From a virus: a DNA stretch of 10,108 nucleotides. Below are positions 5,834 through 6,455 of this stretch, one piece after another. The translations under genes and the position numbers were made by a program. The notes below the pieces were generated by a model that had not been told where the DNA came from, did not search any database, and saw nothing but the letters and a program-made list of their open reading frames with translations. The stretch is taken from UHGV virus genome UHGV-0351028, one strand, 5' to 3'. How positions within the stretch are numbered: position 1 is the first letter of the stretch; the number at the start of each line of letters is the position of its first letter.

Positions 5834-5848
5834 GCGCTGACAAAGCGC
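5834..5848 (+). promoter_or_regulatory. nutL boxB hairpin, P22 type
   Basis: GCGC-TGACAAA-GCGC located in the PL leader, matching the P22 boxB sequence as I recall it. No clear boxA seen upstream. Confidence 0.6.
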
Positions 5849-5858
5849 AATAACCAAA

Positions 5859-6001
5859 GTGAACTTTGGGGTGTGGTGAAGGGTTCATGGACGGGAATAT
5901 GTCGCACGTAAAGCGGCGAGGCCTGCGGGACTATTGCCGAATTGAAGTAGGCCGAAACAGGTCGAAATGGGTCTCCCACCTACCACACCACCAAAGTTCA
6001 T
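5859..6001 (+). other. Long-range stem in the N leader (RNase III processing-site analogue)
   Basis: 5859-5878 GTGAACTTTGGGGTGTGGTG pairs with 5981-6001 CACCTACCACACCACCAAAGTTCATC (about 18 bp, one bulge). The 3' arm ends 2 nt before the N Shine-Dalgarno AGGAGG. Same arrangement as I recall for the lambda N leader. Confidence 0.6.
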
Positions 6002-6013
6002 CAGGAGGTCTAT

Positions 6014-6397
6014 ATGACACGCAGAACTCAGTTCAAAGGCAATTCACGTTCTCGTCGTCGTGAGCGTTTAAAGGCAAAGGCATTAGCTAACGGCGTGCTG
6101 GCCCGCGAAGAAGCAATAAGTTCAGAAGTATTACACCGCCCTACTCTAAGCAGAGCGCAGATTCAGGCTAAAGGTACTCACGAAACGCCTGAGCGCATAG
6201 AAGACGCTAAGCCAATTAAGTTCATGGCACAGGACGTGATCTGGCAACAGAAAGAATACAGACGCAATCTGGAGAGAGCGGCCATTGTGTACGCGAATGA
6301 GTTTGGGCATAGGCAACCAGAAACTGGTGTATGTCTTCCAAATGTAGCTCTTTACGCGGCAGGCTACAGGAAATCAAAACAACTGACAGCAAGGTGA
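6014..6397 (+). CDS. N: N-type transcription antiterminator, P22 gene 24-like
   Basis: First gene after PL and nutL. Arginine-rich N-terminus (KGNSRSRRRERLKAKALA) and C-terminus (LPNVALYAAGYRKSKQLTAR) resemble P22 N as recalled. SD AGGAGG precedes the ATG. Confidence 0.85.
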   Translation: MTRRTQFKGNSRSRRRERLKAKALANGVLAREEAISSEVLHRPTLSRAQIQAKGTHETPERIEDAKPIKFMAQDVIWQQKEYRRNLERAAIVYANEFGHRQPETGVCLPNVALYAAGYRKSKQLTAR

Positions 6398-6455
6398 CTT
6401 GTGTTGGTCGCCAGAAAATAAAATTAGGCAGCAAACCACTTATTTGAGGTGATAT

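Follow-up and report, generated by a model that had tools for sequence, protein, structure and literature searches.

The window analysed here, a stretch of 10,108 nt from the virus genome UHGV-0351028, very probably carries a known lambdoid mosaic joint, in which an N module of the HK97/H-19B type is followed by an untranslated, neutral vestige of a phage-21-type N gene. The vestige comprises the last 17 codons and the stop of such a gene (6394-6447, + strand, in the -1 frame relative to N), and it marks an old recombination joint that is found in many phages. The segment around it would represent the early-left regulatory module of an HK97-like lambdoid phage or prophage. The initial annotation of this DNA had described the module as a mosaic. 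Pairwise alignment, which it had suggested as a way of mapping the breakpoints, indeed separated blocks related to lambda, HK97/H-19B and phage 21, with edges at 2936, 5804/5805 and 6394.

The lambda-type immunity core and its flanks

The + strand of the window corresponds to the leftward strand of a lambdoid phage. The immunity core includes a cI gene (3251-3964), whose product is identical to lambda CI at 234 of 237 residues, two cargo genes in the rex slot (4114-5522; the PDC-M63A/B pair) and an immunity terminator that was located by a terminator scan (5529-5548). The lambda-type operators OL3 (5703-5719), OL2 (5723-5739) and OL1 (5747-5763) on the + strand were transferred from the annotation of mEp234 (EF120460). 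In the same + strand block (5703-5771), a promoter scan placed the -35 element of pL at 5737-5742 and its -10 element at 5760-5765. The pL transcript starts with a conserved island of 33 nt (5772-5804, + strand), in which the first 12-13 nt are common to lambda, P22 and phage 21; with lambda, the similarity extends to nearly all 33 nt. On the - strand lie cro (2950-3150), a cII homologue (2516-2812) and a replication O-like gene. The genes 3′ of the vestige on the + strand are an orf28 homologue (6456-6542), ral (6526-6726; Pfam Ral, E = 1.6e-48) and, 3′ of ral, cIII and kil. Rfam yielded a single match for the window, the cIII thermoregulator at 6937-6995.

Sequence similarity to lambda forms one block from 2936 to 3995 (cro, OR and cI; 96.9% identity) and another from 5529 to 5804 (terminator, OL, pL and transcript positions +1 to +33; 90% identity). 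At one end of the core, lambda similarity stops inside the boxA of nutR, at 2936, and the nutR segment of the window (2780-2960) is 100% identical to HK97. At the other end, the left edge of the N/nutL module falls at 5804/5805, and the match to 933W begins at 5773; BLAST-detectable similarity to lambda is absent from 5805-6430 and resumes at 6431. Judged from these alignments, nutR and nutL/N of the HK97/H-19B type enclose the lambda-immunity core. They flank it on both sides as genetics requires, since N and both its sites must be exchanged together.

The region upstream of N had been described as lambda-like with regard to PL/OL and the N-leader stem. This description fits OL and pL as well as the arms of the stem and the SD, but not the interior of the stem. 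The long N-leader stem (5859-6001, + strand), in which 5859-5877 pairs with 5982-6001, has a fold z-score of -3.25. In a global alignment of the leader, its two arms (CTTTGGGGTGTG.TGA and CACACCACCAAAG) and the SD are the only lambda-like islands. The N-leader stem of lambda is an RNase III site, and by analogy the stem in the window may have the same role.

The N protein and its nut sites

The N gene (6014-6397, + strand) encodes an antitermination protein of 127 aa, which equals HK97 N and mEp234 N in every residue (100% identity) and matches H-19B N at 124 of 127 residues (differences E60D, K80E and R100K). Moreover, around 370 phage records, including 933W and many Stx1/Stx2 phages, match the DNA of the N region.

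According to the initial annotation, this protein resembles the product of P22 gene 24, which turned out to be true of its family and of both its ends but not of its centre. N belongs to the Pfam family PF25694 (N_peptide), with a score of 57.8 bits at a gathering threshold of 27.9 bits (E = 1.7e-15; profile positions 6-100 of 100). P22 gp24 matches the same profile over its full length with 152 bits; phage 21 N falls below the threshold, and lambda N matches PF11438 (N36), not PF25694. The arginine-rich motif (ARM) of N (GNSRSRRRERLKAKA, residues 9-23) is related to the P22 gp24 ARM (GNAKTRRHERRRKLA) and shows a weak match (E = 0.006) to N of BTP1, a protein that shares the N-terminus of P22 gp24. 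The C-terminal tail (LPNVALYAAGYRKSKQLTAR) is P22-type as well. In BLASTP only residues 98-127 align with P22 gp24 (67% over 33 aligned positions, E = 1.5e-9), and the central 70 or so residues have no relation to it. Because the likeness is limited to the ARM and the last 30 residues, we rejected N as a full-length orthologue of P22 gene 24; its true type is that of HK97, H-19B and 933W. On sequence criteria, “P22-type” is thus a fair family label for the protein, and “P22 gene 24” an inaccurate one. An assignment as lambda N was likewise rejected, since the protein has neither a match to PF11438 nor the lambda ARM (MDAQTRRRERRAEKQAQW), and since the boxB loops read GACAA and not GAAAA/GAAGA. 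A phmmer search of PDB sequences with N returned no match even at E = 10, probably because this method does not pick up N peptides of known structure that are so short or have diverged so far.

Both boxB elements had been recognized as P22-type, and their coordinates as well as the GACAA loop were confirmed in each case. The boxB of nutL (GCGCTGACAAAGCGC; 5834-5848, + strand) and the boxB of nutR (TCGCTGACAAAGCGA; 2897-2911, - strand) are predicted to fold into 5-bp hairpins that expose this loop. The 13-nt boxB core CGCTGACAAAGCG occurs at exactly two sites in the window, 3′ of pL and 3′ of cro, and in none of 200 shuffled sequences that served as a chance control. The 15-mer of the nutL boxB equals the nutL boxB of P22 (read from NC_002371) and is also identical in H-19B, and the 15-mer of the nutR boxB equals that of H-19B nutR. 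Furthermore, a spacer hairpin is predicted for each site: GAUUC-GAAUAU-GAAUC in nutL (5814-5829, + strand), the sequence of which is also present in the H-19B leader, and GGAC-AUUC-GUCC in nutR (2916-2927, - strand), an H-19B-type dyad in the interval between boxA and boxB whose sequence is identical in H-19B nutR. A boxA of nutR (CGCTCTTTT; 2934-2942, - strand) was read from the sequence, and the equivalent site is annotated in mEp234. For nutL, there is just a poor match to boxA (CGCACTACT, 5782-5790), and the mEp234 annotation calls this element “putative”. Neely and Friedman reportedly found in 2000 that H-19B N can do without boxA.

The ARM mutations R15C, R15P and R18P of H-19B N abolish antitermination at H-19B nutR/tR1 (PMC3526286). 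The stretch 12-RSRRRER-18 is required for the activity of H-19B N (PMC3526286), and the same residues lie within the ARM of the window N. Moreover, the purified 127-aa H-19B N is active in vitro, and the protein is also fully active in vivo (PMC3526286). The question raised earlier, whether the N ARM matches the boxB loops, is therefore answered through identity to the experimentally cognate N/boxB pair of H-19B. Since the two N proteins are nearly identical, the boxB sequences are the same and the activity of H-19B N is published, the N of the window is likely to act in antitermination on its own nut sites. We propose that N would be made from pL and that its ARM would bind the GACAA-loop boxB in the nascent pL (nutL) and pR (nutR) transcripts. 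The N complex together with NusA would then render RNA polymerase resistant to downstream terminators. The 54 nt that follow the N stop codon would not be a working part of this antitermination machine.

Identity of the vestige

Read in the -1 frame, the sequence that starts at 6394 and continues past the N stop encodes VTCVGRQKIKLGSKPLI and ends with a stop at 6445-6447, exactly as the initial annotation had read it. The peptide had been called lambda-N-like by comparison with the lambda N C-terminus (ITCSGRQKIKGKSIPLI), which had been quoted correctly. The sequence is a genuine N C-terminus and shares 12 of 17 residues (31/54 nt) with lambda N; its source, however, is a phage-21-type N gene, to which it is identical at 17 of 17 residues and 53 of 54 nt. 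The phage 21 N sequence used in this comparison agrees at 100% identity with N of phage 21 (OL657228), of lambda imm21 and of DE3. Functional N genes of CUS-3, HK542 and HK633 match the vestige at 52-53 of 54 nt; the N of CUS-3 has a phage-21-type body, and in those of HK542 and HK633 a phage 21 tail is attached to a lambda body. In a pairwise comparison, the 3′ end of HK542 N aligns at 54 of 55 nt (E = 5e-22).

That such a short segment resembles the end of an N protein by coincidence is hardly credible, as nothing beyond its shortness speaks for this explanation. The match to phage 21 is near-perfect in both nucleotides and residues and runs on gap-free for 497 nt, the database E-values range from 3e-18 to 2e-31, and the back-translated pattern of the vestige has one match in the window and none in 200 shuffles. 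The similarity at 6394-6447 is thus significant. Moreover, positions 6394-6890 align gap-free with phage 21 at 97.2% identity, a stretch that begins at N codon 83 and extends over the N stop, orf28, ral and a terminator. Positions 6891-7185 run on into cIII and kil of phage 21, with ea10/ssb being skipped at 6890/6891. In these alignments, the vestige is the left end of a block of about 0.8 kb that tracks phage 21, and not an isolated oddity. A functional phage-21-type N gene at this position was rejected, because only codons 83-99 are present, the phage 21 ARM (GTAKSRYKARRAELIAERR) is missing and the sequence 5′ of the segment is unrelated. Within 6445-6458 (+ strand), the old N stop is followed by the SD (TGAGGTGAT) and the start codon ATG of the next gene, and this ATG is the same one that starts gp45 of HK97.

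Origin of the joint

The putative crossover lies in a GT microhomology at 6394-6395 (+ strand). The N gene of the window ends with ...GCA AGG TGA, phage 21 reads ...GGT GTG ACT TGT, and the window matches phage 21 from G6394 onwards. The P22 gene 24 ends with AGGTAA. In the IMG/VR loci described below, the N stop codon is TGA in 56 of 56 copies that carry the vestige and TAA in 17 of the 22 without it. The start of the phage 21 alignment exactly at 6394, the AGGTAA of P22 and this split between TGA and TAA together point to a crossover within GT. The N stop codon TGA (6395-6397) would then be chimeric, its G and A being derived from the phage-21-type codons GTG ACT.

We suggest that an incoming N gene with a P22-gp24-like C-terminal tail, ending in AGGTAA, was joined within GT, at or beside its own stop codon, to a resident phage-21-type N gene at codon 83. 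The joining may have been illegitimate or mediated by the GT microhomology, and it would have put the last 17 resident codons out of frame, with orf28-ral of the resident phage behind them. We infer both the direction and the mechanism of this ancestral joint, the direction from stop-codon usage only.

Overall, the alignments support the view that the vestige was left by a real recombination in which an older N gene was replaced. The initial annotation had taken it for the scar of an exchange that swapped N specificity. The scar itself stands, but lambda N was not its source, and the exchange did not take place in this genome but is old and has been inherited widely: HK97, mEp234, HK106, H-19B, 933W and many Stx phages have this N and the vestige as well. 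For phages L and P22, it has been documented that N/gp24 can exchange its C-terminal domain independently (PMC8022706). A search of the open-access literature returned no text that mentions the vestige.

Distribution and possible functions of the vestige

From 489 relatives in IMG/VR, we analysed the best 80 loci, which have an N of at least 98% identity. Two of these are truncated. The vestige is present in 56 of the 78 scorable loci among these best 80 and absent from 22, where unrelated sequence begins right after the N stop. Among the 56 copies, 50 are full-length and six switch part-way to other N 3′-end alleles (e.g., VTCVGRQKQRGKSIPAYYD and stop in L013). Furthermore, the plaque-forming phage PhiR5_2 has a near-identical N without the vestige. 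The vestige is therefore dispensable, since it is missing from the 22 IMG/VR loci and from a phage that forms plaques. The whole arrangement of 5560-6760 was found in 34 complete E. coli genomes, and parts of it in 1,932 of 5,426.

The RNA fold of 6370-6470 is unremarkable (z = -0.9), and a scan detected no terminator or other signal in the vestige; the closest terminator-like sites are at 6316, 6715 and 6863. A programmed -1 frameshift was rejected, as inspection of 6385-6397 revealed no X XXY YYZ heptamer and the fold is the unremarkable one just mentioned. These results also bear on the idea that the vestige is translated, either as a stop-start mini-ORF of 17 codons that couples the next gene or, through a -1 frameshift, as the phage-21-type tail of a 144-aa N. 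Some features are compatible with translation: a GTG or ATG overlaps the N stop, as GTGA (AGGTGA) in the window and as ATGA (AGATGA) in H-19B and about one third of the IMG/VR copies, the TGA of the vestige lies inside the SD TGAGGTGAT, 8 nt before the next ATG, and none of the 50 full-length copies has a disrupted reading frame. However, a slippery heptamer and a significant downstream structure are both missing, the mini-ORF lacks a spaced SD, and two of the three polymorphisms in the vestige are nonsynonymous in the old frame. Moreover, 22 of 78 loci and the plaque-former PhiR5_2 do without the vestige, and the 127-aa H-19B N shows full activity by itself, in vitro as well as in vivo (PMC3526286). 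We consider translation of the vestige very unlikely.

Sequence diversity was compared between the vestige and N. In the vestige, pi is 0.011 with three of 50 sites segregating and 21 haplotypes, numbers that are too small for significance; at the third codon positions of N, pi is 0.036 with 15 of 127 sites segregating. The lower diversity of the vestige speaks against a freely drifting scar, although with three sites the difference is not significant. At 6420, functional N genes show the I/M polymorphism as well. The N genes with and without the vestige did not separate into DNA clades; on average, pairs of copies differed at 5-6 positions per 381 nt, irrespective of whether they came from the same class or from different ones.

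These observations could be taken to mean that the vestige is kept as a recombination linker for the exchange of the N/nut or the immunity module, a tentative reading that we find doubtful but less so than translation. In the modular view attributed to Susskind and Botstein, whole modules are said to be exchanged via short shared homology. As a linker, the vestige would provide such homology together with the start of the pL transcript and boxA and would allow exchange without damage to genes. The same 54 nt follow the HK97-type N out of frame and end the N genes of phage 21/CUS-3 and the hybrid N genes of HK542/HK633 in frame. Altogether, the vestige adjoins at least three upstream N contexts and precedes at least four different downstream modules. 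The six copies that switch part-way to other alleles, the I/M polymorphism shared with functional N genes, the lower diversity than at N third positions and the indistinguishable N alleles of loci with and without the vestige fit a linker, too. On the other hand, a neutral scar would serve as homology equally well, so that selection is not required, and in 22 of 78 loci the junction lies directly at the N stop, which indicates that exchange also occurs without the vestige. It is improbable that the vestige is kept either as a translational bridge, coupling orf28-ral, gp45 or L0079 to N, or as a selected homology linker.

The vestige instead appears to be neutral and untranslated. Judged from its several upstream and downstream contexts and the part-way recombinant copies, it has evidently been used as shared homology in exchanges. 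It might persist because little time has passed for mutation to erode it and because exchanges with phage-21-type phages draw on this homology again and again.

Comparison with known phages

Our analysis confirms the original observation, all elements of which lie at the coordinates given; it concerns a known lambdoid mosaic joint and is of low novelty. It offers an example at nucleotide resolution of how lambdoid phages exchange antitermination specificity: N and both nut sites appear to travel as flanks around an unrelated immunity core, and the joints lie in short conserved islands, namely in the 33 nt at the start of the pL transcript, in boxA and at the N stop codon. In practical terms, the out-of-frame peptide should not be misread as a sign of a frameshifted or pseudogenised N, as N is intact and of a type that has been shown to be active. 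The vestige could also be used to mark N-module exchanges among Stx and HK97-like prophages. Beyond annotation, the significance of the finding is small.

Among the known systems close to the arrangement is HK97 (AF069529), in which N is gp47. Positions 5532-6458, with OL/pL, nutL and N, are 96.5% identical, the N protein and the nutR segment are 100% identical, and HK97 has the same 54-nt vestige with the downstream ATG at the same position. Its CI is identical at 236 of 237 residues to both lambda CI and the window CI, so that immunity and N are combined in the same way. HK97 differs from the window in the rex slot, which holds gp49/gp48 and not the PDC-M63A/B pair, and after the vestige, where gp45 takes the place of the phage-21-like orf28-ral. 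Because HK97 has lambda immunity, this N and the vestige, the architecture has been available as sequence since 2000, the year in which HK97 was sequenced. The wild phages mEp234 and HK106 (EF120460/EF120461) also have a lambda-type cI, operators and promoters. They match the window at 96.6% across cII, nutR, cro and cI and at 96.5% across timm, OL, pL, nutL, N and the vestige, and boxA and boxB of both nutL and nutR are annotated at equivalent positions. In mEp234, the rex slot contains hicAB and one ORF; the gene after the vestige in these phages differs from that in the window.

H-19B (AF034975) shares with the window the N type, the boxB elements, both spacer hairpins and the vestige, and the residue numbering of its N ARM fits the published mutational data. 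It has another immunity region and a different leader-stem interior, with 81.9% identity over 5528-6458, and its nutR boxA reads CGCTATTTT in place of CGCTCTTTT. P22 has an identical nutL boxB 15-mer and the GACAA loop also in nutR, and its gp24 belongs to PF25694 and has a related ARM. However, gp24 is a protein of 100 aa and not of 127 aa, the nutL of P22 has a canonical boxA and no spacer hairpin, and gene 24 is directly followed by sieB, whereas the N gene of the window is followed by the vestige. Phage 21 (OL657228) is tracked by positions 6394-7185 from N codon 83 onward at 96-97% identity. Its N codons 1-82, nutL, immunity region and ea10/ssb are absent from the window. The 17-residue tail is identical in both but in frame in phage 21, whereas it is out of frame and, in all likelihood, untranslated in the window.

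A comparable exchange is found among L, BTP1 and P22, in which the last 25-35 residues of N have been exchanged independently; BTP1 N, for example, consists of a P22 N-terminus and a 21/lambda-like tail that ends with SSKPLI. In these phages, the joint is in frame and gives rise to a hybrid protein, whereas in the window it lies at the stop codon and would have left a silent vestige.

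Probable recombination at the N vestige

The out-of-frame remnant of a phage-21-type N gene at 6394-6447, directly after the stop of the resident N, appears to have taken part in further exchanges. In six IMG/VR copies of this site (L013, L016, L049, L063, L074 and L075), the first ~24-45 nt of the vestige are kept and the sequence then changes to other N 3′-end alleles, so that the switched ends read …GRQKQRGKSIPAYYD or …KLGSK(L/P)LYEG, in each case up to a stop codon. Since these copies change part-way to different alleles, they point to recombination of other N genes with these vestiges through crossovers inside the vestige itself.

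We also found a degenerate vestige of the phage-21-type N 3′ end, of ~25 nt (GCAATCCACTATTTAAGGTGATATATGG), in lambda (NC_001416, about 34381-34357) and P22 (NC_002371, about 29637-29613). In both phages, sieB lies between N and orf28-ral, and the degenerate vestige is located across sieB from N, immediately upstream of orf28. Its position beside orf28, beyond sieB, suggests that N with a 21-type end followed by orf28 and ral is the older arrangement.

Flanking regulatory elements

No convincing boxA was found at nutL in the window. What mEp234 records list as a "putative boxA" corresponds in the window to CGCACTACT (5782-5790, + strand), within the first part of the pL transcript, which resembles lambda. 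At nutR, the boxA sequence is CGCTCTTTT.

Downstream of ral, the window lacks ~400 bp that carry the ea10/ssb gene in phage 21. The gap, at 6890/6891, falls between the post-ral terminator and the cIII leader, and identity to phage 21 is 96-100% on both sides. The only Rfam match in the window is the cIII thermoregulator RNA Lambda_thermo (6937-6995, + strand), which at 88.5 bits is well clear of its gathering score, 50.

Accessory genes

The replication O-like gene (1484-2344) is followed directly by an apparent homing-endonuclease ORF of 164 aa (882-1376, - strand; NUMOD4 and HNH_3 domains) and then by a 275-aa ORF for which a Pfam search gave no match.

Between cI and the immunity terminator, where lambda carries rexA-rexB, the window has a two-gene pair matching PDC-M63, listed by PADLOC as a candidate defence system. 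The two genes are PDC-M63A (4114-4593, + strand; E = 1.8e-41), which also matches Pfam DUF6932, and PDC-M63B (4590-5522, + strand; E = 7.5e-45), which had no match in a Pfam search. The cargo in this slot is different again in HK97, with gp49/48, and in mEp234, with hicAB and one ORF.
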